Assembly (NCBI GenBank): GCA_900548675.1
Contig: URLJ01000001.1
Span: 9,012 to 73,011 of the forward strand
Source: an uncultured Mollicutes bacterium
Lineage (GTDB): Bacteria > Bacillota_I > Bacilli_A > ML615J-28 > CAG-313
Length of the DNA stretch: 64,000 nucleotides
Direction: 5' to 3'
Each line of letters starts with the position of its first letter. The first letter of the stretch is position 1. Shown one piece after another: positions 4,541 to 38,662 of the stretch. A program made the position numbers and the translations under genes. The notes below the pieces were generated by a model. That model made no database searches. It was not told the DNA's origin and was given only the letters and a program-made list of their open reading frames with translations.

Positions 4541-5128
4541 AATTTCAACATTATAATCAATTTTAACTGTATTTGTTGGGACAACTAAAATTTGTCCTTT
4601 TTCTTTTGCATTTAATTCAATAATTTCGCCATATTCATGTCCCCATAACACATCTATCCAATTTGCTTTTCGTTGGCGTTTATCCATAATCTTTATTAAT
4701 TTTGGACTTTCTTCGTCCGTTTCTTTAATATAAATATTTTCACCTTGTATTGTCTGTAATTGTTTTCCATACTCAGTGTTAGCAAAAAATACATAATACA
4801 TTTCTTTCGTTGTTTCACTTGAGCCCGTTACAAAACCTGACCCCAATAGGAATGCGCCAGTTAAACTTGCATCTTCATATGTTTCAGTTTTAAATTCTAA
4901 ACCTGTAATTTCATATGCTGTTTCTTGAAATTCACTTTTAGTATCTTCACACGCATGATTTGCAATTGGCAATATAAGTAAGAATCCTGCTAACACTACG
5001 CATGCGCCCACAGCTATTTCCTCGTCCAACCAGTGAGCGATTAGTAAAGTAACAATGGTGACTACAATTATCATTATAATAAAATACAACATATTAAACC
5101 TCCTTATAAGTTTTATATAAACATTCAA
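4538..5128 (-). CDS. Hypothetical membrane protein
   Basis: N-terminal hydrophobic segments; the start may be the internal Met near 5092 to avoid overlap. Confidence 0.55.
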   Translation of the reverse strand: MNVYIKLIRRFNMLYFIIMIIVVTIVTLLIAHWLDEEIAVGACVVLAGFLLILPIANHACEDTKSEFQETAYEITGLEFKTETYEDASLTGAFLLGSGFVTGSSETTKEMYYVFFANTEYGKQLQTIQGENIYIKETDEESPKLIKIMDKRQRKANWIDVLWGHEYGEIIELNAKEKGQILVVPTNTVKIDYNVEI

Positions 5129-5783
5129 ATTTATTATTTAGAGGTATATCCAAATGCCAATGGCCAAAATACCATTTATCTATATTAACCATTTCATTTA
5201 TTGATTGAAGTCTACGTTGAGAATTGCTAATTTTAACTCCATTTATGTTTGAGAATACTGAAATTTGTGGAGTTATAGCAGCTGGACAATCATGTGATAG
5301 CATTATATCTATATGATTATTATCTCCTAAATTTCTTATAAAATGCCCTATATCAGTTGTAGTAATTTCTTCCTCTGGCCACCAACTAATTCCTTCTGTT
5401 CTATGCCATAAGTCTACCGAATTAGCTCCACCGCATACACCTATTCTTTTATTATTAATGTTATATACTTCACCTCTTAATAAGTGAATTACACCACTTG
5501 GTAATTTACCTGCGCGACCACCATTCCATTCAATAACCTCTTCTAATTCTCTAATTAAACGGAAATTTTCATGATTACCATCAACAAAAGCAACTGAAAA
5601 AGGTAAGTCTTCAATGATGCTAAAATTAAGTACAGTAGTTTTCTCATTCCAAATACAACCAAAATCACCTAAAACAATAACTAAATCATCTTTGGTAGCA
5701 TCTGGCAAATTGAAATTAAATAATCGTATTATATCACCGTGCAAATCACCTGTTATTATTATTCTATTTACTTTCTGTATCAT
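5094..5783 (-). CDS. Calcineurin-like metallophosphoesterase (Ser/Thr phosphatase family)
   Basis: Motifs GDLHG, GDFG, GNHE, and GHWH. Confidence 0.85.
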   Translation of the reverse strand: MIQKVNRIIITGDLHGDIIRLFNFNLPDATKDDLVIVLGDFGCIWNEKTTVLNFSIIEDLPFSVAFVDGNHENFRLIRELEEVIEWNGGRAGKLPSGVIHLLRGEVYNINNKRIGVCGGANSVDLWHRTEGISWWPEEEITTTDIGHFIRNLGDNNHIDIMLSHDCPAAITPQISVFSNINGVKISNSQRRLQSINEMVNIDKWYFGHWHLDIPLNNKFECLYKTYKEV

Positions 5784-6590: not shown

Positions 6591-7943
6591 TTAGTCCAAG
6601 TCTTCATCTTCATCTTCATCTGGTTGATGGCATTCTTGCCAACGTGGGCAATGCGCACAGTGGTCTTCATCAGCTTCCATTACTCCATGACTAGCTAAGT
6701 CCCAATCTACGTCTTCACATTCACAAGTATTATCTAATGAACACACTGGATGGTTTTCTATCCAAGTATCGCATTCTGCACAGTCTTCTTCGCAACAGCT
6801 ACAATCGCAATAATCATCAATGTATTCACACCAATATCTATCCTCGTAACAATTATGTTGAAAACCATATCCTAAATACTCTTTTCCTTCATCAGAACCT
6901 TCTATTGTTTCGCCACAACCACAAGCACACTTAAAAGAAGTGTTATATACATTAAAAGTTTCAGGCTCTGCATCAGATTGCATATATAAATTATGATTAT
7001 GATATTCTCCATAGCCATAGTAAATATCTCTATCTATAAAACTGCTATCGCTTTCTTTCCACATATTGCGAACACCCAAGTAATTGCTAATTTTTTCTTC
7101 TACGATTGCTCGCAATTGTTTTTCTAATACACTGTCATAGCATTTGCCTGGGTAGATTGAGTTGAAATGTACTGTTGTAAATTTAGGTGAAATAGCTATC
7201 CATTGACGCATTCTTTTATAACGAACATTTTTTAATTCATAATTATCATATAGATTAAGTTTGCCTTCATTATTCCATACATAAGTAATTAATGATGAAG
7301 TATCAAGTACGGCAGCCATACAACCATCTGCGTGAGAAGCTGAATTATCTGTTTCTAAACGATAACAAGATTCCCATTTATATGGATTTTCACTTGCCAA
7401 CATCATATCAACGGGGTCAATAGAAATAGTATGCATCGCTTCAACAGTATCATTTTCAAAAATGCGCCCTATTTCAGTTACTAATCCATCTGGCGCGTTT
7501 AGCATATGTTTGAAGAAACGAGTAAGTGAACTACCGCCTATCCTATAACCTGAAAATAATGTACTGATTGTATCTCTTATTTGCCAACTCAAATCTGATG
7601 ATTCTATTTTATTGTTTTTTAAATTTCTAAATTCTTCTAACCACAAAGCGTAAGCTGGATAACTTTTTTCTAAATTTCTAACTTCTGAAACAATATCGTC
7701 TCTACATTTTTTATAAGCAAATTTTACATCGCTTTTTAATTTATTATTTAACATTTTAAAAAATCTATATTTATTTTTAGCCCAAGTGTGTAAATAATCT
7801 TTTATTGTCCCATCATCAATTTCATTCATTTTTAAACCACTAAAAATAGAAATACATTTCGTAAAATCTGGAATATTAACCATTTTTAACATTGGTACAT
7901 ATTGTTCTTCTATATCATTAATTAAGTCTTTTGTCATTAACAT
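6591..7943 (-). CDS. Hypothetical protein with Cys-rich, acidic C-terminal region
   Basis: C-terminal CACGCG...CDCSCCEEDCAECD...CAHCP clusters; no recognisable family. Confidence 0.6.
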   Translation of the reverse strand: MLMTKDLINDIEEQYVPMLKMVNIPDFTKCISIFSGLKMNEIDDGTIKDYLHTWAKNKYRFFKMLNNKLKSDVKFAYKKCRDDIVSEVRNLEKSYPAYALWLEEFRNLKNNKIESSDLSWQIRDTISTLFSGYRIGGSSLTRFFKHMLNAPDGLVTEIGRIFENDTVEAMHTISIDPVDMMLASENPYKWESCYRLETDNSASHADGCMAAVLDTSSLITYVWNNEGKLNLYDNYELKNVRYKRMRQWIAISPKFTTVHFNSIYPGKCYDSVLEKQLRAIVEEKISNYLGVRNMWKESDSSFIDRDIYYGYGEYHNHNLYMQSDAEPETFNVYNTSFKCACGCGETIEGSDEGKEYLGYGFQHNCYEDRYWCEYIDDYCDCSCCEEDCAECDTWIENHPVCSLDNTCECEDVDWDLASHGVMEADEDHCAHCPRWQECHQPDEDEDEDLD

Positions 7944-8708: not shown

Positions 8709-9162
8709 TTTTAAATTCCTCCTTTGAAGGCATTTCTAATGAATACCCATAAGGCATTTCGCCTTTTGCTATTTTTATTAAATGCTCTTTTTCTTCTTCG
8801 TTTTCATAGGCATTATTTTCCAACATCTTTTCTGCTTGTGTTCTAATTACATTAAAAGCTGTTGGTGTTAATATGTTAGCAAAATAATGTTCCATACCTG
8901 GTTTTAACATTGCTGTAAAATCTATCATTCTCATAGGCATTTGAATTCCTGTTATATATCTTATTGCTCTCCATAAACTTATTCCATCAGTTGTATCAAA
9001 AGTTACATTTTTAGCTGCGTGAAAAGCTGCTGCCGCAATTAGACCTACTGTGTCGTCTGGGTCTAAATCTGCATCTCTAATTTCTCTTATTAAACCAGAT
9101 AATTCTTGTGGTCCATATATTTCATCTCTTATTTTTTGTGCCAACTCTAATTCTTTATCCAT
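8695..9162 (-). CDS. Hypothetical protein
   Basis: ORF. Confidence 0.55.
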   Translation of the reverse strand: MDKELELAQKIRDEIYGPQELSGLIREIRDADLDPDDTVGLIAAAAFHAAKNVTFDTTDGISLWRAIRYITGIQMPMRMIDFTAMLKPGMEHYFANILTPTAFNVIRTQAEKMLENNAYENEEEKEHLIKIAKGEMPYGYSLEMPSKEEFKNEEK

Positions 9163-9813
9163 CTAAACCTCCTTTATATAGTATTTTAATACTATTTTAT
9201 TATAATCTTCTATCCAATTCCAAACTTCTCTGCCATCTTCTGTTTTTAAATTGTCATAAAATCTATAACCATAGTAATCTCTACGTACTCTATCTGCTAC
9301 GTAATCAATTCCATACAATTTTAAATCTACAAGAATATAATCTATCATTGCACGAGTAACAAAATCCCAAATTGGATATTCTCCTGCACTTTCTCTGTTA
9401 TGTGCTTTATAATATTTATAAGGTTCGTCCCAGTTCCATTCAGAGCCTGCGCGTTTACCATAAACTTTTCCTGCACCAATCCAGTCAGCTATCATTTCAT
9501 ATACATATTGTCTTGGTATTCTGCAAGGTTTTGGATTTTGTTGGTTATCCCAATCCATCCAATACCATTGATGGTGTTTATTTTTTGCTTTGTGATGAAG
9601 CCATGCGGCTGAATAACCTTTTTCTTTCTTTTCTGCATCTATTGGTGAATAAGTACCTTGAAAATATCTTGCGCTTGGACCAAATTCAGTCCAAGAAAAT
9701 TTACTTAAATCGTGTACAATACCTTGCCAATATAAACCAAATTGAAAACAAACTTTTCCAACTTCTATTTTATGTTTAATTATTGTTTTTAAATGTTCAA
9801 AATATTTATTCAT
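9163..9813 (-). CDS. Hypothetical protein (Trp/Tyr-rich)
   Basis: ORF. Confidence 0.55.
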   Translation of the reverse strand: MNKYFEHLKTIIKHKIEVGKVCFQFGLYWQGIVHDLSKFSWTEFGPSARYFQGTYSPIDAEKKEKGYSAAWLHHKAKNKHHQWYWMDWDNQQNPKPCRIPRQYVYEMIADWIGAGKVYGKRAGSEWNWDEPYKYYKAHNRESAGEYPIWDFVTRAMIDYILVDLKLYGIDYVADRVRRDYYGYRFYDNLKTEDGREVWNWIEDYNKIVLKYYIKEV

Positions 9814-11080
9814 TAATTACCTCCTGTGCTTCTTCCATATCTGGCGCATCTGCGTTTTCTTTTATAATTCCTTCTAACACTTTAAAAGCAAATGATTTCT
9901 TTTTAAAAGCAGTAAAAACACTTTTATCTTCTAATCGAGCTACAACACCTTCGCTTACGTGAGTTTTTCCAATTGGGTCTTCTATATCTAACCATTTGTT
10001 TATTCTTTCATACATATCTTCTTGTGTTGTGAAAATAAATCTATCTAAATCCATTACTGTATTTAATCCCATTATTTCACATCTATGTTTTACAAGTGAC
10101 CAAGGATATTCAATGACTTCTCCATCCGGATTTGTCATTGTCATTCTGTAAACATACATTGCATTTTGTCCTTGCTCACAGCCATATGAGAAAGTAGTTT
10201 TAGCACCATATTTTTTAGTAAATTCTTTATCGTTCATTTTTTTATTATCAGCTATACCCATTATTGTTGTATTTTCGTTAGCCCAACCTACTATCTCGTA
10301 GTAAATTGTTTCACCTTTTAAAAGTCTTCCTTCTAATAAGCGATGATATTTTGCGCGAAAAGCATTGTCTCCATAAAATCCATCTTCGGCAAATTGAGTT
10401 AGCACAACTCTTCTAGTTCCTGTTACATATCTATAACGAGGAAATAATTTAAAAATAAATTGTTCAATTTTATTTTTACCAGCAGATGGCAAGTAAGCTG
10501 TTCTTCCAGAAGTTCCATGCATTTTTAAAGTTAAAGTAACTAAATCGCCAGGTTTAAATCTTTCAATATTGTAGTCAAGTTGTTCAGTATCTCTATGTTC
10601 TTCAAATAGTGGAAATTCATTTACTTTTCTTTTTTCTCTTTTAGTTTGCGCGCGAACCACGGATTTTTTACCTCTTGGTATATATTTTCTACAAATTTCT
10701 TGCCCGTCTAATACTGTAATTTGGTCTCCAAGTGATAAACTATTTACTACTTTTGTTCCAAGATAGTTTAAAGAACTTAATGGCATTACCAATCCATCTG
10801 AACGTTCGCCTCTTAGCTTAATTGCTTTTACATTTCTTTTATCTGGTTCTAAATAACCACCTATATTATTACCATTTTCATCTTTTTTCCTAACTAAATT
10901 ATTGGCTTCACAATATGACTCTGATAACTGTCCATCAGCTGGAAAATACAATACTATATCATCATCTTGTGAGTCTGCGCCAACAATTACTGTTGTATCA
11001 AATACATCTGCTAATACAAGTCTATCTGCATTAGGATGCTTTCTTACATTTTTTAATTTTGTTACATATCCACAATACAT
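9806..11080 (-). CDS. RNA ligase (Rnl2-like nucleotidyltransferase) fused to an N-terminal Trbp111/EMAP-II-like tRNA-binding OB domain
   Basis: N-terminus VRKHPNADRLVLADV...ERSDGLVMPLSSL is the tRNA-binding-domain signature. Motif I KMHGTSG (KxHG as in T4 Rnl2), motif III IYYEIVGW, motif IV EGVVARLED, motif V KKKSFAFKVLEG. Confidence 0.7.
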   Translation of the reverse strand: MYCGYVTKLKNVRKHPNADRLVLADVFDTTVIVGADSQDDDIVLYFPADGQLSESYCEANNLVRKKDENGNNIGGYLEPDKRNVKAIKLRGERSDGLVMPLSSLNYLGTKVVNSLSLGDQITVLDGQEICRKYIPRGKKSVVRAQTKREKRKVNEFPLFEEHRDTEQLDYNIERFKPGDLVTLTLKMHGTSGRTAYLPSAGKNKIEQFIFKLFPRYRYVTGTRRVVLTQFAEDGFYGDNAFRAKYHRLLEGRLLKGETIYYEIVGWANENTTIMGIADNKKMNDKEFTKKYGAKTTFSYGCEQGQNAMYVYRMTMTNPDGEVIEYPWSLVKHRCEIMGLNTVMDLDRFIFTTQEDMYERINKWLDIEDPIGKTHVSEGVVARLEDKSVFTAFKKKSFAFKVLEGIIKENADAPDMEEAQEVINE

Positions 11081-12858: not shown

Positions 12859-13002
12859 ATAAACAAAAAGAAACCCTCTGGTACAAACCAGAGGGTAATA
12901 TATGCTGGATTTTCTTTTATGTGAAAATCTAATATCCAGAGTTTTTTAGGCAGTTTGCTCCTATCTGCCACGGATTAGGCATATCTCTAACTCTAAACTT
13001 CG

Positions 13003-13075
13003 CCTAAGCCAGGACTCGAACCTGTATCTCTATATAAATAGCGCTCTAACCAATTAAGCTACATAAGCGAAGTGC
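13003..13075 (-). tRNA. tRNA-like gene, anticodon arm unresolved (possible degenerate tRNA)
   Basis: Minus-strand D-arm tagcttaattggttagagc and T-arm caggttcgagtcctgg; acceptor gcttatg/cttaggc extended by cttc/gaag; no clean anticodon stem found. Confidence 0.35.
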
Positions 13076-15899: not shown

Positions 15900-16742
15900 C
15901 TTTTGATAAAGCAGACTGTACCAAACTGCTTTTGTAATAGCTATCGTTGAGAGCCTTTACCTTCCTGCATCTTCACTCAAAGGTGAGCCGCGTACACCAT
16001 CTCTCAATATTAAACAGGGTCTATTGTTCCACTATTACATCAATAATCTTACATATCTCAGTTTAGTTTGTACCTCGTTACTCTTTATGAATAAGTATTT
16101 TCATACTGGAAGATTACAGAATACTTCCAACTAACAGTTCAACTCTGTAAGATAATTCACCTATCTTCATCTGGGAATATTTACTGTTAGAGCCTAAGCC
16201 ACGACATTTTCAACCCAACTCCAACTCGTCTTGCAATTAGCAAGTTTGCCAGAGCGTCCGCTTAGCTTCACTTTCTCACGACTAAACTCATCTTGAAACC
16301 AGACCTCTAATATATTTCCACCGAATTTCACTTGGAGCCACTTCCAACTCCTTTGGTCTGTGCCTTACGCCGTTGATAGCGCATTCAGCCATAATGACTA
16401 TTGTTCTTGTACTTTTTTGAGCTACCCGATTTCCACCACGAGGAGGTAAGTACACTGGAAATCATATTTGGTTTGGTGGGGCGGCACTCCCACATCTCTT
16501 ATAAGCCCTAAATCTTACCTATAATGGATTTTAACCATTCCTCCACAGTTGCCCGGCTGTCACGGACTCGAACCGTTCGATATTAGGGTTGATAGCTGCC
16601 TTTCTATCCTCAAACCTGCAATAGGCCGTTGCTGGTTATAACTTTTTCGTATCGCCGACACTCTCTCGCTACAAGAGCCGCTTGCCTAAATTCACTATTA
16701 GGTCTGTTACAGACTGTTTCGCATTTCACCTATCGCTATGTA
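15900..16742 (-). other. About 840-bp GC-enriched ORF-free block; candidate structured ncRNA or degenerate tRNA region
   Basis: No ORF above 20 aa with an RBS on the minus strand; a T-loop-like ggttcgagtcc (reverse complement at 16565-16575) lacks a matching acceptor. Confidence 0.3.
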
Positions 16743-21271: not shown

Positions 21272-22789
21272 TTATAATCTAACAACATCATATATTGAAT
21301 CATTTAGTGTTTTTAACATTGTGTTATATGGGTCTTCATCCACCGCCATTAATACGCTTCTAAAAGCTGAAACAGATTGCCCACTTACCATTGCAATATT
21401 TTTTTGTTCGCATACTCCGTGATATACATCTTGTCTACTATCTACGTTCCAATATATTATTTTTGGAATAATATATCCGTGACGTTGAAATCTCATTGCA
21501 ATTTCATCCATTAGTTTGTTTTGTCTTGCAATTTCAGTATTTCCATACATTGATGAATAACGTGTTCCAGTTGCTCCATCAAATTCCATATCTGAAATTA
21601 TTACAATCGCTTTAGGCATATCTTCTTGTGTTAATTTGTTGTTAATAGCAGTTTGTAACACTAAATTAAACGCAGCTTCTATATTAGTATTGTCGACAAT
21701 TGCTGGAATGCTTCTAACTTTTTCAGCTAAATTTAAACCTTTTAACTCTACAAAATTTGGTTTTGATGAGAAAGTCATAAAATTATTATGCCAAGGTCCA
21801 TTATTTCTTTCAGCAAAGTAAATTGCTAATCCTATTGAAGTACAAATTGGTCTTCCACTCATTGAGCCAGAAGTGTCTGCCATTACTAATATATTGTTGT
21901 TTCCTTCAATATAATTTGGTAATGCTTTCCATTGTTCTTCAAGTACTTCATCCCATTTGTTAAAACTAAAATTACTGCTTCTCCAATTTTCTGACAATCC
22001 TGCGGCTTCCATTATATCATAAGGATATAATGTTTTTGCATTAATTTTTTCTTCTCCTGATTTTACTTTTTCAATGTACTCTTTAAATTTGATTAAATTA
22101 TGCTCTCCAAAAGCATTTCTATATTTTTTCATTGCCAATGAAGGTACTTCATTGTACACAATTTTATCCCATTCATTTTTGCTCATATTTCTTTCAACTA
22201 TATTAAGTTGTTTTCTTAATTTTGATAAAATTTGTCTATATTCTTTATATGAATAATGTAATTTTTTTGCAGTTAATTTACCTAATTTAGCGCTTTCGAT
22301 TGACACACCAGATGTTGACTTTAACCATTTTGCTAATAAACTAATTTGTTTACCTGCCTCAAGCGCAGCTAAATCAGCTTCCAATTGATTTTTTATAACA
22401 TCAAATGCTAAATCTTCCAATGGTGTTTTTACAAATTCATATAAATCATCCCATCTACCAAAAATAGGCACTAAATTAATATTTTTTGCCATAACTTCTT
22501 GATGATAGTTTGCTAAATATTTTATTAAAATACGAAATGTTCTTCTTTCTCCAAGTCCACCTCTAATATTTCTTGCATAAAATAACATTTTCATAGCTAA
22601 TAGTTGGTCTTCGGCAAAAGCTTTAATAAATTTCGTTTCAATTTCTTGTGAAGGTCTTGTTCTTAACGCACCAATTACTGCGAATAAATCTAATAAATCT
22701 GAATTTGTTGTTCTATATGCTATCGCTCCATTTTCTGTTAATGTTTCGTTTGTTTCATTTTTAATACTTTTTATAAAATTTTCACTCAT
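21272..22789 (-). CDS. von Willebrand factor A (vWA) domain protein with a long helical N-terminal region; possibly Ro60/TROVE-like
   Basis: MIDAS motif ILVMADTSGSMSG around residue 305, followed by IVIISDMEFDG; the N-terminal 300 aa are unassigned. Confidence 0.6.
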   Translation of the reverse strand: MSENFIKSIKNETNETLTENGAIAYRTTNSDLLDLFAVIGALRTRPSQEIETKFIKAFAEDQLLAMKMLFYARNIRGGLGERRTFRILIKYLANYHQEVMAKNINLVPIFGRWDDLYEFVKTPLEDLAFDVIKNQLEADLAALEAGKQISLLAKWLKSTSGVSIESAKLGKLTAKKLHYSYKEYRQILSKLRKQLNIVERNMSKNEWDKIVYNEVPSLAMKKYRNAFGEHNLIKFKEYIEKVKSGEEKINAKTLYPYDIMEAAGLSENWRSSNFSFNKWDEVLEEQWKALPNYIEGNNNILVMADTSGSMSGRPICTSIGLAIYFAERNNGPWHNNFMTFSSKPNFVELKGLNLAEKVRSIPAIVDNTNIEAAFNLVLQTAINNKLTQEDMPKAIVIISDMEFDGATGTRYSSMYGNTEIARQNKLMDEIAMRFQRHGYIIPKIIYWNVDSRQDVYHGVCEQKNIAMVSGQSVSAFRSVLMAVDEDPYNTMLKTLNDSIYDVVRL

Positions 22790-23379
22790 TTTAAACCTCC
22801 ATTTTCCTAAATAAAGACAAGGCGCTTATAACATTTCCTTTTGAGCAGGAAATTTAGGATTTGAACCTAAATAAACCAATAACGAATTTGCTGGATGCGC
22901 CTTTAAAACTAGGGACTGATATCATTTTTCGGACTACACGTCTGACTTAATATACAATAAATTGCTGGCTGTCCCTACAATATAATATTTTTAATTTAAC
23001 TCGTGTTTGAAAGATGTTCTTGGCATATTACTGGGGTCGCCTCAATCTTTCCTCCCACGACATTGTAAGCTTTTCGCATGGAGCGAAATACTTTCTAATT
23101 TGATGTTTTATCAAATTCCAAAATTACAAAAAATTGTAATACTGCTTTTACGCATTTGCTGTATGACCCCTTAGATTACTAAAAGTATGTGTAATTGTGT
23201 TCGATATTAACTTTGACACTTTGCTGGGCTCGTCTCTGTTAATATCTTGCACCTAATATGTTCTGGAGCTTACTCCTCGTAAGCATTGTTGGACAAACCA
23301 ACCTAATTTGTATCTAAAATACAAACTGTCTTTTTCAAGACGATTGCTGTGTGAGCCCTTATTTATTTTCTATAATATA
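22790..23379 (-). other. About 590-nt non-coding leader with a tRNA-like T-arm and mini-helix immediately upstream of the vWA gene (candidate Y-RNA-like or other ncRNA)
   Basis: Minus RNA uuuagguucaaauccuaaa (T-arm-like; reverse complement at 22852-22870), then uuuccugcucaaaaggaaa hairpin, then the RBS ggagg; no ORF above 30 aa. Confidence 0.3.
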
Positions 23380-26760: not shown

Positions 26761-26852
26761 TTTTTTTAAATAAAAACAAGGCGCAATATCTAATACCCAA
26801 AATTAGTCGCTCGTAAAGGTCGAGCCAAGAGAATGCTGTATGCGCCTTTCTA

Positions 26853-27189
26853 TGGTGGAGGTAACGAGAATCGAACTCGTGTCCCATTATATTTAATAAT
26901 AAACTTCTACAAGTTTAGTTTATTTTCAATAAATTTTTAATTTTAAAATAAACAAAGTCAATTAAAAATTAGTTGTTAATAAAAATACTTCTACAACTAT
27001 TAAAATATTTTGTTCCGTTGTTCTTCCATTACGAAAGGAGGTGATACATATATTAAACTGTTCTAGTCAAAGACTAGGCAGCCATTAAAACTTCGTTTGC
27101 TCTTATTCTTTTTGAACTTTTAAAGTGTCCTGTTCACCACTACTTGCTTATTATTATTTCCTACAATAGTCGAAACCAAATATACCCCC
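26853..27189 (-). ncRNA. ssrA: tmRNA (SsrA-like), encoded tag peptide A-N-E-V-L-M-A-A
   Basis: 5' end GGGGGUAUAUUUGGUUUCGACUAUUGUAGG closely parallels E. coli GGGGCUGAUUCUGGAUUCGACGGGAUUUGCG. Resume codon GCA at 27098-27100, reading GCA AAC GAA GUU UUA AUG GCU GCC UAG (E. coli reads GCAAACGAC...) with a hairpin after the stop. 3' end is T-arm acgagttcgattctcgt, then acceptor tacctcc pairing with the 5' ggggguа, then ACCA. Confidence 0.7.
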
Positions 27190-27294
27190 ATATATATCAA
27201 CCTAATGGCACGAATCTGACCGCTTGGTCGGGTGTAGCATATATATCTTATAAAAGATTATACCTCTTATAATCCTCGTGCATTAGGTTATTAA

Positions 27295-27624
27295 CTATTT
27301 ATTTATTTTCTTTGCGGCTTTTTCTGCCTTTAATCTAGCTTTTTCTGCGCGTTCAGCATCTCTTTGCGCATTAGCTTCCAATTTTGTTAAATACTCGTGT
27401 CTAACTTCTTCTACATCAAACCTTTCTGGATTGTGTAAAGTTATATTTAAAGTTGCATAATAAGTTTCACCTTCATATTCTACCTCTATTAAACGACCTT
27501 TAACAACCGGCTCTGTCCCTATATGACTATTGGCAAAACCTTGTAATGAAACTCCGTATAAAAAGGCTCTTAATTCTGCTTCTTTTGCTTTACTTAATTT
27601 CTTTCCCATAATTTCTCCTTTCAT
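27295..27624 (-). CDS. Hypothetical protein
   Basis: ORF. Confidence 0.5.
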   Translation of the reverse strand: MKGEIMGKKLSKAKEAELRAFLYGVSLQGFANSHIGTEPVVKGRLIEVEYEGETYYATLNITLHNPERFDVEEVRHEYLTKLEANAQRDAERAEKARLKAEKAAKKINK

Positions 27625-27649
27625 ACTTATATTATATCAAAATTTTTCC

Positions 27650-28213
27650 TTAATTACAACTTTTTAAATTCCAATCTTCTGCCCAACAAATGTTTTCATG
27701 AACATACTTATCTTTGTAAATTTCTTCAATCTCTGCAAGTGTAACAGGTTCATAATTAACACATTCTACACTTACACAGTACATATTTTTATGTCTTACA
27801 TATTTATTATGAATATGTCCATAAATCATTTTCGCGCCATAATACATACCTGCATAATCGATAATTGGATAATGAGAAAGTATAATTTGCTGTTTATCCT
27901 CATTTACTTGAAGATAATCACATACTTTTTCAAAACACTCATCAAAATCGCGCTGACCAGCATACTTATCGTGATTCCCTTTAATTAAAATTTTCTTTCC
28001 ATTTAATTGTTTCAAAATTTTAATTGCGTCTTGTTTACTCATTTTAAAACAAAAATCACCTAAAATATATACTGTATCTTCGTTTGTTACTTTATTATTC
28101 CATTTTTCAATTAATTGTTTATTCATATCTTCTGTATTTTCAAAAGGTCTATTACAAATTTGAATAATACGTTCATGACCAAAATGCGGGTCTGCTATAA
28201 AAAAGTTAGCCAT
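27650..28213 (-). CDS. Calcineurin-like metallophosphoesterase
   Basis: Motifs ADPHFGH, ILGDF, GNHD, and GHIHN. Confidence 0.85.
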   Translation of the reverse strand: MANFFIADPHFGHERIIQICNRPFENTEDMNKQLIEKWNNKVTNEDTVYILGDFCFKMSKQDAIKILKQLNGKKILIKGNHDKYAGQRDFDECFEKVCDYLQVNEDKQQIILSHYPIIDYAGMYYGAKMIYGHIHNKYVRHKNMYCVSVECVNYEPVTLAEIEEIYKDKYVHENICWAEDWNLKSCN

Positions 28214-29035: not shown

Positions 29036-30328
29036 CTAACTATATAATGGGTGTTTTTTACATAATTGTGCTACTTCTTCCTTTAATAAAATTTTTTGAT
29101 TTTCATCCATATCATTTGTAGTTAATACAATTGAAATAATACGAGCAATTTCTTTCATATCGGCTGTGTTAAAACCTCTTGTTGTTACAGCTGCTGTTCC
29201 TATTCTTATACCACTTGTAACCATTGGTCTTTCTGGGTCATTTGGAACTGCATTTTTGTTTAGTGTAATATTAATTTCTTCTAAACGATTTTGAGCTTCT
29301 ATTCCAGTAATTCCAACGTTTCTTAAATCTATTAATAATAAATGATTATCTGTTCCACCTGTAATTAGATTAAAACCTCTTTCTTTTAATTCATTTGCTA
29401 AAGTATAACAATTGTCCACTATTCTTTTTTGATAATCAATAAATTCAGGTTTTAATGCCTCTGCAAAGCATACTGCTTTTGCAGCAATAATGTGTTCAAG
29501 CGGTCCACCTTGAGTACCTGGAAATACAGCACTATCAATTTTTTTACCATATTCTTCTTTACATAAAATAATTCCACCACGAGGTCCTCTTAATGTTTTA
29601 TGAGTTGTAGAAGTAACTACATCTGCATAAGGAATTGGGCTTTGATGTAATCCTGCTGCAACTAATCCTGCAATATGAGCCATATCTACCATAAAAATTG
29701 GTTTTTCAAAAAATTCGTCATCTTCCACAGCTTTATTAATCATATCTCTCATTTTTGCAAAATCAATTTCTCTTGGATACGCACTAGCACCTGCAATAAT
29801 TAATTTAGGTCTGCTCATACGCATCATATCATCAAAATTTTCATAATCTATATAACCTTTCTCATCTGTTCTATATTCTACAATATTATAAATTTTCCCA
29901 CTTTGATTTACAGGTGAACCGTGTGATAGATGTGCGCCGTTTTGTAAGCTCATTGTAAGTATAGTATCTCCTGGTTTTAGAAAAGCTTGATAAACCGCTA
30001 AGTTAGCTTGTGCACCTGAATGAGGTTGAACATTTGCATATTCAGCTCCAAACAATTTCTTTAATCTATCAATTGCTAACTGTTCTATATTATCTACAAA
30101 TTTACATCCACCATAATATCTTCGACCTGGGTATCCTTCAGCATACTTATTTGTTAAATAACTTCCCATTGCTTCCATAACAGCTGGACTAACAAAATTT
30201 TCTGAGGCTATCAATTCTATATTAGTTTGTTGGCGTTCTTTTTCTGCCATTATATTAGCATAGACTTCAGGGTCTTGCATTAATAAATTATAAAATTCTG
30301 TCATTTTCTTCCTCCAATTTTCTATCAA
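29036..30328 (-). CDS. glyA: Serine hydroxymethyltransferase
   Basis: [37 protein letters not shown] and PLP-lysine region [15 protein letters not shown]. Confidence 0.95.
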
Positions 30329-30435
30329 GTTCTAATAGATGGGCGTAAACCTCTGATACACATTCTTTACAGTCTTCTATCTCACCGCGCTTGGGACAGA
30401 ACATTTTTATACAAATTCTACAACAATGTGTCATA
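30288..30435 (-). CDS. Small zinc-ribbon protein (start at MTHCC with RBS ggagg)
   Basis: ggaggttaat-ATG; CCRIC...CPKRG...CKEC; the track ORF extends to 30494. Confidence 0.45.
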
Positions 30436-30466
30436 TTAACCTCCATCTTAAACATTCTTATAATAA

Positions 30467-30495
30467 GTATAATAAAATTCGCGCGAAAAGTCAAA
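30467..30495 (-). promoter_or_regulatory. Promoter for the minus-strand block (TTGACT-17-TATACT)
   Basis: Reverse complement ttgacttttcgcgcgaattttat-tatact; includes the ttcgcgcgaa palindrome. Confidence 0.55.
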
Positions 30496-30606
30496 CTTTG
30501 TTTTACTATCTAGAAATTTGACTTTTAAAAACAATTATGATATTTATACGTGCGCGCACGCGCATTATTATAAAAGGAAGAAAACTTACTTTGCGCGCGA
30601 GTGACA
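30479..30606. promoter_or_regulatory. Divergent control region with three CGCGCG-core palindromes (candidate operators)
   Basis: ttcgcgcgaa (30479-30488), gtgcgcgcac within acgtgcgcgcacgcgcat (30551-30568), and ttgcgcgcgag (30591-30601), in an otherwise AT-rich intergenic region. Confidence 0.4.
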
Positions 30607-30615
30607 AATAAAGAC

Positions 30616-30644
30616 TTGAAAAAAGAAAAAATCTGTGTTATACT
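30616..30644 (+). promoter_or_regulatory. Promoter for the plus-strand module (TTGAAA-17-TGTGTTATACT, extended -10)
   Basis: ttgaaa, then aaagaaaaaatctgtgt, then tatact. Confidence 0.55.
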
Positions 30645-30672
30645 ATTTATATATAAATGGAGGTTATAAATT

Positions 30673-31293
30673 ATGAAGAATGTAAAAGAAACATTGGATT
30701 ATATTTATTTATGTATTTTTAAATATTATCAAAAAAGTCAGTTAGAAGTTTTAGCAATGGAGTATAATCACACTAAATCAGATAGATTATTATTAGAAAT
30801 AATTAAACAACATAAAGATAGTTTTAAAAATATTGTTTTTTATAGTGCTGTGCCTGAATATGAACAAGAATGTAATAATATTATAGGTAATGATGATATT
30901 ATTAAAGTTACTAATTTTAATTTTGATAAATTTTTTAAAAGGCATTATAATATATCTTCAAAAAATCAACTATATTGCGATAGTTTTTTAAAGCATATTT
31001 ATCTTAATGATTTATATCCCTTATATAATTATACCAATAAAGAAATCGAAGAAATGCTTAAATTTTATAATATTAATATGGACGAATTAAAAGAAGAGCA
31101 ATATGGTTTAACCATTGAAGAATTAGTACATTTAGAAAACTATTTATATTATTACGATAAATTTGAAAAAAGTTTAAACAATAAAGAAGAAAATGCTATA
31201 AAAGTATTTAATTTTATTAAACAGCAAAAAGCATTAAAAACAAAATTTGTCCCATCTTTATTACAAATGCAAGAAACCGAAAATCTTTTATAA
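30673..31293 (+). CDS. Hypothetical protein
   Basis: ORF with RBS aatggagg. Confidence 0.6.
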   Translation: MKNVKETLDYIYLCIFKYYQKSQLEVLAMEYNHTKSDRLLLEIIKQHKDSFKNIVFYSAVPEYEQECNNIIGNDDIIKVTNFNFDKFFKRHYNISSKNQLYCDSFLKHIYLNDLYPLYNYTNKEIEEMLKFYNINMDELKEEQYGLTIEELVHLENYLYYYDKFEKSLNNKEENAIKVFNFIKQQKALKTKFVPSLLQMQETENLL

Positions 31294-37716: not shown

Positions 37717-38662
37717 ATGCCAGAATTAATTTTAGTAGTTGGTTTACCTCGGCAGTGGTAAATCAACTTGGGTAAGAAATAATTTTTTATATGATAGATT
37801 ATACAGAGGCGGAATAACTATGTTGTCTTCTGATGACGTTAGAAAACAATTATTTAAAGATGAAAATGACCAAACTCATAACGAAGAAGTTTTTCAATAT
37901 ATTAAAGATACAGCAGTTTCAAAATTAGAATTAGGCCATAAAGTAATTATAGATGCAACTAATTTAACTCGTAAATCAAGAAAAGCAATTACAGATTATG
38001 TTGAACAAAAAATTAGCGGTTTTTATGATTTTGGTTATATTCGTTTTGTTGTAATTGCTACTCCTTATTTTAAATGTTTAGAAAATAATAGAAAAAGAAG
38101 TAGACAAGTACCAGAAGAAGTAATTACAAGAATGTATAAATATTTTGAATTTCCAACTTATATGGAGACTGTTCATAAAATTGATATAGTTTATCCTTTT
38201 AAAATTGATAAAGAGCTATATGGAGCAAATCCAGCTTACAAAATTTTAGAAGATTATCCACATGAAACACCTTATCATAAAATGACAGTTGGACATCATA
38301 TGGAAGAAACATATAATGTAATGAAAGTAATGTCTAATAATAGAGTTATGTTAAGTGCGGCAGAATTACATGATATCGGCAAACCATTTTGTAAACAATA
38401 TATTGAAGAAGAAAATGGTACTAAACGCGCGAGATTTTTAAATCACGCAAATGTAGGAAGTTACGAAGCTATGTTTTATGCAAAACAAAGAAAATTTACA
38501 GCAGAAGAAACATATGAGCTTTGTAATTTAATTCAATTTCATATGCGCCCTTATGATTTAGAAGATAATGATAAAAGTATTTTAAAATTAAAAAACACAA
38601 TAGGAGAAAAATTATATTATAAATTATTAATGTTGAATATTGCAGATAAGGAGGGGCACTAA
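37717..38662 (+). pseudogene. P-loop kinase + HD-domain phosphohydrolase (polynucleotide-kinase/phosphatase-like); reading frame broken inside the Walker A motif
   Basis: ATG 37717 gives MPELILVVGLP then a stop; the next frame continues (TTG 37739) ...GSGKSTWVRNNF...; a single extra C in cctcggcagtgg separates GLP from GSGKST. C-terminal HD motifs HHMEETYNVMKV and AAELHDIGKPF. Confidence 0.55.

Follow-up and report, generated by a model that had tools for sequence, protein, structure and literature searches.

The 64,000-nucleotide (nt) stretch of DNA analysed here, positions 9,012 to 73,011 of contig URLJ01000001.1 and called the window in the following, raises the question whether a phage keeps a transfer-messenger RNA (tmRNA, encoded by ssrA) of its own in working order, and in which respects such an RNA departs from the bacterial tmRNAs it resembles. 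A first-pass annotation had proposed that the minus strand of the window carries a 337-nt, phage-encoded tmRNA with the short tag ANEVLMAA. Judging from comparison of 15 distinct sequences, this tmRNA is very probably a functional, vertically inherited phage gene within a lineage of ~116–134-kb phages. Phage tmRNAs are already established and current understanding is not overturned by any of the results reported here; what the family adds are clade-specific peculiarities. The lineage appears to keep its tmRNA under selection while reshaping two post-rescue parts, namely the tag, which comprises 7–8 residues and lacks the ending ALAA, and the pseudoknot ring, which lacks pseudoknot 2 (PK2).

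Identity and architecture of the gene

The tmRNA was called by ARAGORN at 26853..27189 on the minus strand, with the tag ANEVLMAA* and the coding part at nt 90–116, and the Rfam model RF00023 matches the same positions (27189..26853, minus strand) over model positions 1–374, not truncated, with 99.1 bits (gathering score 47 bits) and an E-value of 1.8e-37. Both of these checks had been proposed by the first-pass annotation, and both reproduce its coordinates to the nucleotide; the ARAGORN tag call and the phage genes around the locus likewise agree with its description of an ssrA encoded by a phage. The tmRNA-like 5' end (GGGGGUAUAUUUGGUUUCGAC), the T-arm, the 7-bp acceptor stem and the ACCA directly 3' of it, all of which had been pointed out earlier, can be read directly from the sequence, the stem being formed by G1–A7 and U327–C333 with G3·U as third pair. 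The tRNA-like domain is complete in its features, i.e., acceptor stem, G3·U70, discriminator A, CCA, and a T-arm with a UUCGAnU loop. The internal frame starts at nt 90 as described, and the hairpin reported at its end is helix 5, inside which the UAG stop codon sits. No open reading frame (ORF) of at least 50 amino acids (aa) overlaps the gene on either strand, and minimum free energy folding of the whole RNA was uninformative (z −1.6; nested pairs only). The features of the RNA are listed here, with nt counted from its 5' end, PK denoting pseudoknots and S1 and S2 their stems.

26853..27189, minus strand: one-piece tmRNA (ssrA), 337 nt (ARAGORN, full-length Rfam match, 15 distinct family sequences)
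27183..27189, minus strand: 5' strand of the acceptor stem, nt 1–7, GGGGGUA, including G3 of the G3·U70 alanine identity pair (alignment of 15 sequences)
27113..27141, minus strand: PK1, nt 49–77, S1 AGUG/CACU, S2 UGAAC/GUUCA (complementary versions in the family)
27104..27105, minus strand: U85 and A86, at −5 and −4 from the resume codon, predicted to set the frame (invariant in the family alignment)
27074..27100, minus strand: tag frame, nt 90–116, GCA AAC GAA GUU UUA AUG GCU GCC UAG, read as (A)ANEVLMAA* (ARAGORN)
27056..27083, minus strand: helix 5, nt 107–134, enclosing the UAG stop codon, with the clade-specific extension CUAGUC-UUU-GACUAG (covariation)
27012..27055, minus strand: former position of PK2, nt 135–178, small hairpin only (pseudoknot finder score 0)
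27033..27045, minus strand: AUCACCUCCUUUC, nt 145–157, a 13-nt copy of the 3' tail of 16S rRNA (anti-Shine-Dalgarno) (sequence match)
26970..27011, minus strand: PK3, nt 179–220, S1 AAAAUAUUUU/GAAGUAUUUU, S2 UAGUUGU/ACAACUA (shuffles and covariation)
26918..26970, minus strand: PK4, nt 220–272, S1 AAUUUUUAAUU/AAUUAAAAAUU, S2 GUUUAUUUU/AAAAUAAAC (shuffles and covariation)
26864..26880, minus strand: T-arm, nt 310–326, ACGAG-UUCGAUU-CUCGU (4 of 5 stem pairs with double-sided changes in the family)
26853..26863, minus strand: 3' strand of the acceptor stem, nt 327–333, UACCUCC, with discriminator A334 and encoded CCA (sequence and covariation)

Conservation and divergence in the phage family

Relatives of the locus were gathered via the gene that immediately precedes the tmRNA, a conserved gene for a 109-aa protein, for which 36 homologue clusters were obtained and the contigs of ten were examined; back-translated patterns of this gene retrieved no IMG/VR loci, and the relatives came via the protein database and contig look-up. 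A further comparison set was formed by 119 loci from genomes that have a 17-nt motif of the tRNA-like domain in common. The gene order common to the relatives is serine hydroxymethyltransferase (SHMT), metallophosphatase, 109-aa gene, a gene-free gap of 400–650 nt, a 74-aa gene with tRNA-Ser(GCU), and helicase, and in all 19 loci that reach past the 109-aa gene this gap holds a full-length tmRNA (88.9–136 bits, Rfam). The 118-kb IMG/VR genome L001 encodes its tmRNA at 7438–7777 (96.5 bits, Rfam), and in the more distant viral contig L037 the tmRNA adjoins tRNA-Ser(GCU). Together with the window and the syntenic loci these make up the family of 15 distinct sequences, of which 13 with lengths of 322–341 nt form a core clade and L205 (378 nt) and L037 (368 nt) are outliers. 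Because of the extreme E-value and because homologues with compensatory changes occupy the same site in 19/19 related contigs, a chance match can be dismissed.

RNAalifold predicted 54 pairs for the 15 sequences, 23 of which show double-sided changes. G3·U is found in 15/15, and acceptor pairs 1–4 are conserved while pairs 5–7 switch between GC, UA, AU and CG, so that the pairing of the two ends in related genomes, which the first-pass annotation had named as a point to check, is borne out. T-stem and helix 2 covary as well, and one stem each of PK1, PK3 and PK4 was recovered in the same prediction. MAFFT alignments put hairpin stems out of register; stems were therefore located in each sequence by an anchored pseudoknot finder, alternative stems picked in a few sequences were corrected by inspection, and pair statistics were scripted on the resulting structure-anchored alignment of the 13 core sequences. 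In this alignment 44/57 pairs of PK1, helix 5, PK3 and PK4 carry double-sided changes, compared with an average of 25 for partner shuffles, none of 500 of which reached the observed value, and with 4–11 for slid registers. The informative point is that family members show one common architecture at corresponding positions although its sequences differ.

This is seen most directly in the individual elements. PK1, which lies upstream of the tag template and is the one pseudoknot generally required in a tmRNA, occurs in the core clade with six complementary versions of S2 and two of S1 (AGUG/CACU and AGUGG/CCACU), and a third version of S1, AGUAG/CUACU, is seen in the outlier L205. The stem of helix 5 changes from CUGC/GCAG to UAGUU/AACUA in L203/L204 by covariation. 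S2 of PK3 is found in four compensatory versions (UAGUUGU/ACAACUA, UGGCUAU/AUAGCUA, UAGCUGU/ACAGCUA, and UAGCAGU/ACUGCUA), and PK4 has eight complementary versions of S1 and three of S2; for the window alone, the observed score was reached by 1/300 dinucleotide shuffles for PK3 and by 0/300 for PK4. The earlier suggestion that the RNA may lack the usual pseudoknots thus holds for PK2 but not for PK1, PK3 and PK4, which are present and covary. At the PK2 site only a hairpin of 4–7 bp is found in the core clade. The loss is specific to the phage clade, PK2 being retained by its sister phage sequences, L205 and L037, and by those bacterial tmRNAs that are closest, and it is independent of that in other tmRNAs with a reduced set of pseudoknots (Rickettsia without PK2, plastids, some cyanobacteria), which likewise lack one of PK2–PK4 and keep the tRNA-like domain, PK1 and tag template (PMC1168896, PMC3985003). 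A further difference from these is that the replacement carries the anti-Shine-Dalgarno copy. PK2–PK4, located 3' of the tag, are usual in tmRNAs but neither universal nor essential; they are dispensable in vitro and Rickettsia does without PK2 (PMC1168896, PMC3985003), and the loss, which has precedent (PMC1168896), does not exclude the RNA from the tmRNAs.

In the tag region U85 and A86 are invariant and the resume codon is kept as GCA or GCU; in Escherichia coli the reading frame is set by U85/A86, of which A86 is indispensable (PMC2481249). Nine distinct tags of 7–10 codons exist in the family, all of which keep the frame between GCA/GCU and a stop codon that lies in or at helix 5. ANEVLMAA is shared by the window, L195 and L199, and the others are ANGLIAA, ANNLIAA, ANELIAA, ANEVVFAA, ANKVLIAA, ADNYLLVA, ANNELIAA, and ANKNAELIAA. 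They differ by insertions and deletions of whole codons and by synonymous changes (AAC/AAU, GCC/GCG, UAG/UAA) around the common pattern AN..L(I/M)AA. From the conserved determinants and this in-frame variation of the tag we infer purifying selection on a working tmRNA, which is unlike what a decoy or a decaying passenger would leave; the comparisons show every sequence determinant of a tmRNA to be present and under selection. In silico, every defining feature that was looked for was found, and the features that are missing, PK2 and ALAA, are typical rather than defining. Variation extends to the 3' end, as CCA is not encoded in L203/L204 (3334–3661; ...CUCCAUCA) or in L205 (2904–3281; ...UUUCCAG), and the tmRNAs of L203, L204 and L205 would need CCA addition after trimming.

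Among the 119 motif-sharing loci, the bacterial tmRNAs most similar to the phage RNA come from metagenome-assembled genomes (MAGs) of uncultured animal-gut Clostridia/Eubacteriales and reach 45–56 bits in nhmmer, compared with 105 within the family. These one-piece tmRNAs (RF00023) share with it G3·U70, T-arm, helix 2, PK1, U85/A86 with GCA, helix 5, PK3, and PK4. The halves of the tRNA-like domain are 77–86% identical to the closest Clostridia tmRNAs, which is as close as within the phage family, and PK1, the tag with helix 5, and PK2–4 show 56–68% identity. Differences concern length (337 nt versus 352–358 nt), GC content (28% versus 34–37%), the replacement of PK2 by a hairpin and the 16S-tail-like motif, a tag of 8 versus 10–11 aa ending in LMAA instead of ALAA, and the phage origin. 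Closest Clostridia tags include ANKQEVALAA, ADNNQEVALAA, ADNNELALAA, and AENNNEYALAA, and the phage tag resembles a shortened ANKQEVALAA.

The second peculiarity is the 16S-tail motif. AUCACCUCCUUUC(U) is identical to 13–14 nt of the mature 3' tail of Firmicute 16S rRNA, which in Bacillus subtilis reads GAUCACCUCCUUUCU (PMC5732282). Within the family the match extends over 13–14 nt in 8/15 members, over 12 nt in two and over 10 nt in one. CACCUCCU is absent from 87/87 other tmRNAs compared, and a match of at least 12 nt arose in 0/200,000 shuffles; the motif is not explicable by chance. In the core clade the copy precedes the small hairpin at the PK2 site, is conserved in sequence and not merely in pairing, and is missing in three core members and in the two outliers. 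Two other explanations of the motif were tried and rejected. Internal pairing of its CACCUCC with the 5' acceptor strand is contradicted by the acceptor stem, which covaries across the family, whereas the motif does not; and its reverse complement, a perfect Shine-Dalgarno sequence on the plus strand, is not followed by a start codon or an ORF it could drive.

Alternative readings of the locus

Several observations weigh against a functional phage tmRNA of host-dependent type. PK2 is missing, as the pseudoknot finder returned a score of 0 in the window compared with a shuffle mean of 14. The canonical ALAA degron is missing too: the family tags end in LMAA, LIAA, VFAA, or LLVA and 0/9 in LAA, which makes proteolytic targeting of tagged proteins uncertain. 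Immediately 5' of the tmRNA there is no strong sigma-70 promoter; the only one found stands ahead of the 109-aa gene. The canonical pairing of 100% in the structure-anchored alignment arises partly by construction, as stems were defined per sequence. The negative result for SmpB given below covers 64 kb of a ~117-kb genome, and the host assignment draws only on the similarity of tmRNA and polymerase.

The gene might not belong to a phage at all: it could be an ssrA of bacterial origin, located on a piece of chromosome or on a product of mis-assembly, or else the partial ssrA at the attachment site of a temperate phage, ssrA being a common prophage integration site. Several short IMG/VR contigs do carry host-type tmRNAs, e.g., one with the Fusobacterium-type tag GNKDYALAA, and one related contig sits in a MAG labelled Alphaproteobacteria. 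Against this, the gene is complete and not a 3' fragment, it lies within a phage tRNA array and replication module, its gene order recurs on ~116–118-kb contigs from different samples and in a 118-kb IMG/VR viral genome, its 21-nt 5' end occurs in 0/185,579 species genomes, bacterial tmRNAs stay at or below 56 bits in nhmmer, and the clade-specific features are absent from 87 other tmRNAs; a non-phage origin is hence hardly credible. The RNA might also be an inhibitor or decoy that competes with the host tmRNA for SmpB, alanyl-tRNA synthetase (AlaRS) or EF-Tu without any tagging and so shuts down or reprograms host trans-translation. Indeed, no region resembles host tmRNAs more closely than the tRNA-like domain, the window yielded no phage SmpB, and phage RNAs consisting of the tRNA-like domain only could titrate SmpB, as suggested for mycobacteriophage DS6A (PMC4131195). 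A decoy would, however, need neither the U85/A86 context nor an in-frame tag, a stop codon in helix 5 and three pseudoknots, all of which are conserved or covary in 15 sequences, and we regard this explanation as very unlikely. The DS6A RNA is comparable in being phage-borne, tmRNA-derived and probably reliant on host SmpB; it comprises little beyond the tRNA-like domain (PMC4131195), whereas the full mRNA-like domain is under selection here.

The remaining two readings accept ribosome rescue and concern what the reshaped parts are for. According to one of them, the short L(I/M)AA tag is an adaptation that gives tagged proteins a different fate, so that rescue proceeds without a host-type degron; recognition by ClpXP and adaptors might be weakened or evaded or another protease might take over, and ribosomes might be recycled without commitment to proteolysis or phage proteins spared. 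The complete lack of LAA and ALAA endings in the family contrasts with ALAA in 24/40 bacterial tags and 5/8 other viral tags and with (A/V)(L/Y)AA in 24/24 of the closest Clostridia tags, the family tags are short (7–8 aa, 10 in L037, versus a median of 10 elsewhere) and their pattern is shared throughout the clade. ALAA is the ClpX/ClpA determinant, and lineages with other tag endings, such as Mycoplasma, whose tags end in AFA, use other proteases (PMC3985003). However, the phage tags still end in AA and have a hydrophobic residue at position −3, so that ClpX may still recognise them, and a changed fate seems to us possible but short of probable. The other reading goes further and holds that PK2 was replaced by a functional, single-stranded anti-Shine-Dalgarno copy (AUCACCUCCUUUCU) which gives the RNA a role beyond rescue, combined with the shortened L(I/M)AA tag and an altered proteolytic fate. 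Such a copy might act as a sponge for Shine-Dalgarno sequences, as an aid in docking to mRNA or ribosome, or as a decoy against a factor or toxin of the host by which the anti-Shine-Dalgarno tail is recognised or cut. The conservation of the motif in sequence speaks for this combined reading. Against it stand the absence of the motif from three core members and the two outliers and a C-to-U change within the CCUCC of L199, by which the adjoining hairpin is improved and which points to a structural role and not to an anti-Shine-Dalgarno one; we consider the combination improbable.

Phage context, flanking RNAs and proposed role

The protein partner of a tmRNA is SmpB. A profile built from 12 SmpBs of bacterial loci, whose recovery validated the search seed, gave a best E-value of 0.16 in the 64-kb window, i.e., noise, tblastn found none there, and none of the mid-sized ORFs of the window is an SmpB according to Pfam. 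Since no smpB was found in the window, use of the host SmpB is most likely, and on the simplest reading the RNA would use AlaRS, SmpB, EF-Tu and RNase P of the host. The hosts are probably low-GC gut Clostridia, judging from the similarities of tmRNA and polymerase. The tmRNA would be transcribed with or just after the 109-aa gene, probably from a sigma-70-like site (27659..27631), up to the U-run of a trailer. RNase P would create the 5' terminus, G1, and 3' trimming would leave the encoded CCA as the other end. Following alanine charging by the host AlaRS via G3·U70 and A73, host SmpB and EF-Tu would bring the tmRNA to ribosomes stalled on broken or non-stop mRNAs, where translation would resume at GCA (nt 90) in the frame set by U85/A86, A-ANEVLMAA would be appended, and termination at the UAG in helix 5 would free the ribosome. 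The phage would thereby gain additional rescue capacity while nucleases of phage and host and RNA-targeting defences of the host truncate mRNAs, in keeping with a neighbourhood that comprises a tRNA array, RNA ligase, polynucleotide kinase, and Ro60-fold protein. The L(I/M)AA ending of the short tag in place of ALAA suggests that the fate of tagged proteins may be tuned differently from that in the host. The first-pass annotation had proposed that the tmRNA maintains translation under host-imposed stress, which may reasonably be supposed. The neighbourhood, which also includes metallophosphatases, suggests an RNA-maintenance module sustaining translation while mRNAs and tRNAs are cut during infection. 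The elements flanking the tmRNA are the following.

27295..27624, minus strand: conserved 109-aa gene directly upstream, without Pfam family, synteny anchor (36 homologue clusters, gene order)
27198..27290, minus strand: structured 5' leader with a covarying outer stem, the inner hairpin GACC-AAGC-GGUC and the conserved CGAGGAUUAUAAGAGGUAUAAU (family comparison)
26771..26849, minus strand: structured 3' trailer with the closing stem AAGGCGCA/UGCGCCUU, a CAGCA motif, two hairpins and a U-run (fold energy and conservation)
26771–26849, 22812–22905 and ~22915–22990, minus strand: three paralogous small RNAs with closing stem, (N)CAGCA and U-run (structure comparison)

The 109-aa gene may be co-transcribed with the tmRNA; the sigma-70-like site upstream of it reads TTGTAA-17-TATAAT and contains TG. 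The leader of ~90 nt is present in 7/14 family loci, and the others have a leader of 16–20 nt with a small hairpin only. Its outer stem varies in sequence with complementarity kept, and the inner hairpin occurs as GACC-AAGC-GGUC and GCCU-AAGC-AGGC. UAUAUAU stands between the leader and +1 of the tmRNA, and (U)AUAUAU precedes G1 at all loci. The leader is present in a single copy within the window and has no match in Rfam, and no sigma-70 promoter was recognised within it despite a TATAAT. The trailer (−20.5 kcal/mol, z −2.25) is kept beside the tmRNA in 10 family loci with a covarying inner hairpin and likewise has no Rfam match; it is a probable terminator and possibly a separate small RNA. 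In L204, tRNA genes follow directly after the tmRNA in place of the trailer.

The trailer has two paralogues, which stand in tandem just upstream of the gene for a 505-aa DUF2828/DUF7788 protein (21272–22789, minus strand) classified in PHROG as RNA-binding protein. The AlphaFold model of this protein (pLDDT 81) matches Ro60 of Thermus phage phiLo (9l5y_B, E-value 1.4e-5, TM 0.52) over its full length and, also over the full length, Rsr of Deinococcus radiodurans (2nvo, E-value 3.4e-5). No PDB entry was matched by sequence, the likeness to Ro60 coming from the fold search only, and the DUF2828 family is very large (7,837 proteins at E-values of at most 1e-10). A Y RNA or YrlA gene adjoins that of the Ro60/Rsr orthologue, and the RNA has its 5' and 3' ends paired in the Ro-binding stem; YrlA in addition has a tRNA-like module with a T-arm. 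The RNA at 22812–22905 contains a T-arm-like hairpin (UUUAGG-UUCAAAU-CCUAAA) with compensatory changes in L207 and L208. The trailer of the tmRNA has the closing stem and CAGCA in common with its paralogues and lacks the T-arm. No Rfam Y RNA model matches the trailer or its paralogues, and by their architecture the three are candidate Y-like RNAs.

The genes around the tmRNA are those of a phage. The window has ~29% GC, and its genes lie on the minus strand up to ~30.3 kb and on the plus strand thereafter, with a switch in the sign of the GC skew at the same point. PHROG and Pfam gave phage-typical matches to Dda-like helicase, DnaB-like helicase, primase, both type II topoisomerase subunits, DNA ligase, RNase H, RNA ligase, RecJ-like exonuclease, Sak4-like annealing protein, deoxynucleoside monophosphate kinase, polynucleotide kinase, NrdD, SHMT, HNH endonucleases, and a protein resembling M23 peptidases and endolysins. 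A 1331-aa polymerase matches best, with 42% identity, YorL of SPbeta-like Bacillus phages. The tmRNA gene is thus embedded at full length in a tRNA array and a replication and RNA-repair module; virion genes are absent from the 64-kb window. Related contigs from other samples measure ~116–118 kb, and one 134 kb, and the source is a large uncultured phage and not a "huge" one. L199 (GCA_017409945.1, JAFQRT010000311.1, 116,189 bp), a near-complete relative with the tag ANEVLMAA within a MAG labelled Alphaproteobacteria, is probably a mis-binned phage contig. Among 50,697 GenBank phage records, neither the tmRNA (blastn) nor the surrounding 20 kb (megablast) had a match. In IMG/VR there was no exact match to the 3'-terminal 26 nt of the tmRNA; the exact 21-nt 5' end led there to the contig of L001 only, and in metagenomes to two contigs with an unrelated 24-aa tag.

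Compared with known phage tmRNAs, i.e., those of cluster C mycobacteriophages (Bxz1 and relatives) and Bacillus phage G (PMC4131195) and of huge phages (PMC7162821), the gene is similar in being a complete ssrA of a large phage with many tRNAs and translation-related genes (PMC4131195, PMC7162821, PMC9004378). It differs in belonging to another, uncultured lineage without nucleotide match among GenBank phages, in a genome of ~117 kb and not 200 kb or more, and in its very short, non-canonical tags; some huge phages carry SmpB, whereas none was found in the window. The statement of the first-pass annotation that tmRNA genes occur in only a few phages has to be corrected, as 402/18,146 phage genomes (2.3%) carry one, with 133 unique tmRNAs (PMC9004378). 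Even this frequency may be an underestimate: for L001 ARAGORN, on which the published surveys relied, made no tmRNA call, while Rfam was positive and the 7-aa tag ANGLIAA could be read by eye, so that ARAGORN-based phage surveys may undercount short-tag tmRNAs. Tags of 7 aa are also encoded by L188, L189, L190, and L201; among the 7-aa-tag loci, the ARAGORN result covers L001. The Pelagibacter/OM43 phage Melnitz resembles the phages described here in combining a tmRNA with an extra structured RNA element, in its case a glutamine riboswitch (PMC9004378); the Melnitz tmRNA is two-piece, permuted and of alphaproteobacterial type, whereas the RNA described here is one-piece and of Firmicute type with leader and trailer that match nothing in Rfam. 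These comparisons add to the known phage tmRNAs a well-supported family, with covariation across its 15 distinct sequences, from phages of what are probably uncultured gut Clostridia. Moreover, 19 tRNAs, RNA ligase, polynucleotide kinase, and the Ro60-fold protein with its Y-RNA-like candidates form an apparent RNA-maintenance island against RNA-targeting stress.

Further observations concern single elements of the window and of other contigs. The 19 tRNA genes of the window comprise 18 called by ARAGORN and one found by Rfam only (13001–13068, minus strand, 42.5 bits). A polynucleotide-kinase-like protein (37739–38662, plus strand), RNA ligase (9806–11080, minus strand) and metallophosphatases (27650–28213 and 5094–5783) make up, by their annotation, what is predicted to be the gene set of a tRNA/RNA repair pathway. 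Viral and metagenome contigs fetched by a 17-nt motif and unrelated to the family contain complete tmRNAs as well. L054, a viral contig, has 24 tRNAs and a complete tmRNA with the tag AEDYSFAVAA; L024, taken from a 270-kb contig, has a complete tmRNA with a 27-aa tag ending in LAV; L016/L017 have a tmRNA with a 24-aa tag and an adjoining tRNA-like gene with a 4-nt anticodon call; and complete tmRNAs are also found in L050/L051 and L043. A skipping-rope RNA (RF02924, 45.7 bits, gathering score 36.7), whose middle hairpin contains an insertion of 73 nt, lies at 16468–16618 on the minus strand, and directly downstream of it, at 16407–16463 on the same strand, there is a sub-threshold match to the Faecalibacterium prausnitzii-type hepatitis delta virus-like ribozyme (24.4 bits, gathering score 44, E-value 0.014). 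Finally, transcription diverges from an intergenic region of ~350 nt at ~30,300–30,700, possibly an origin or the boundary between modules.

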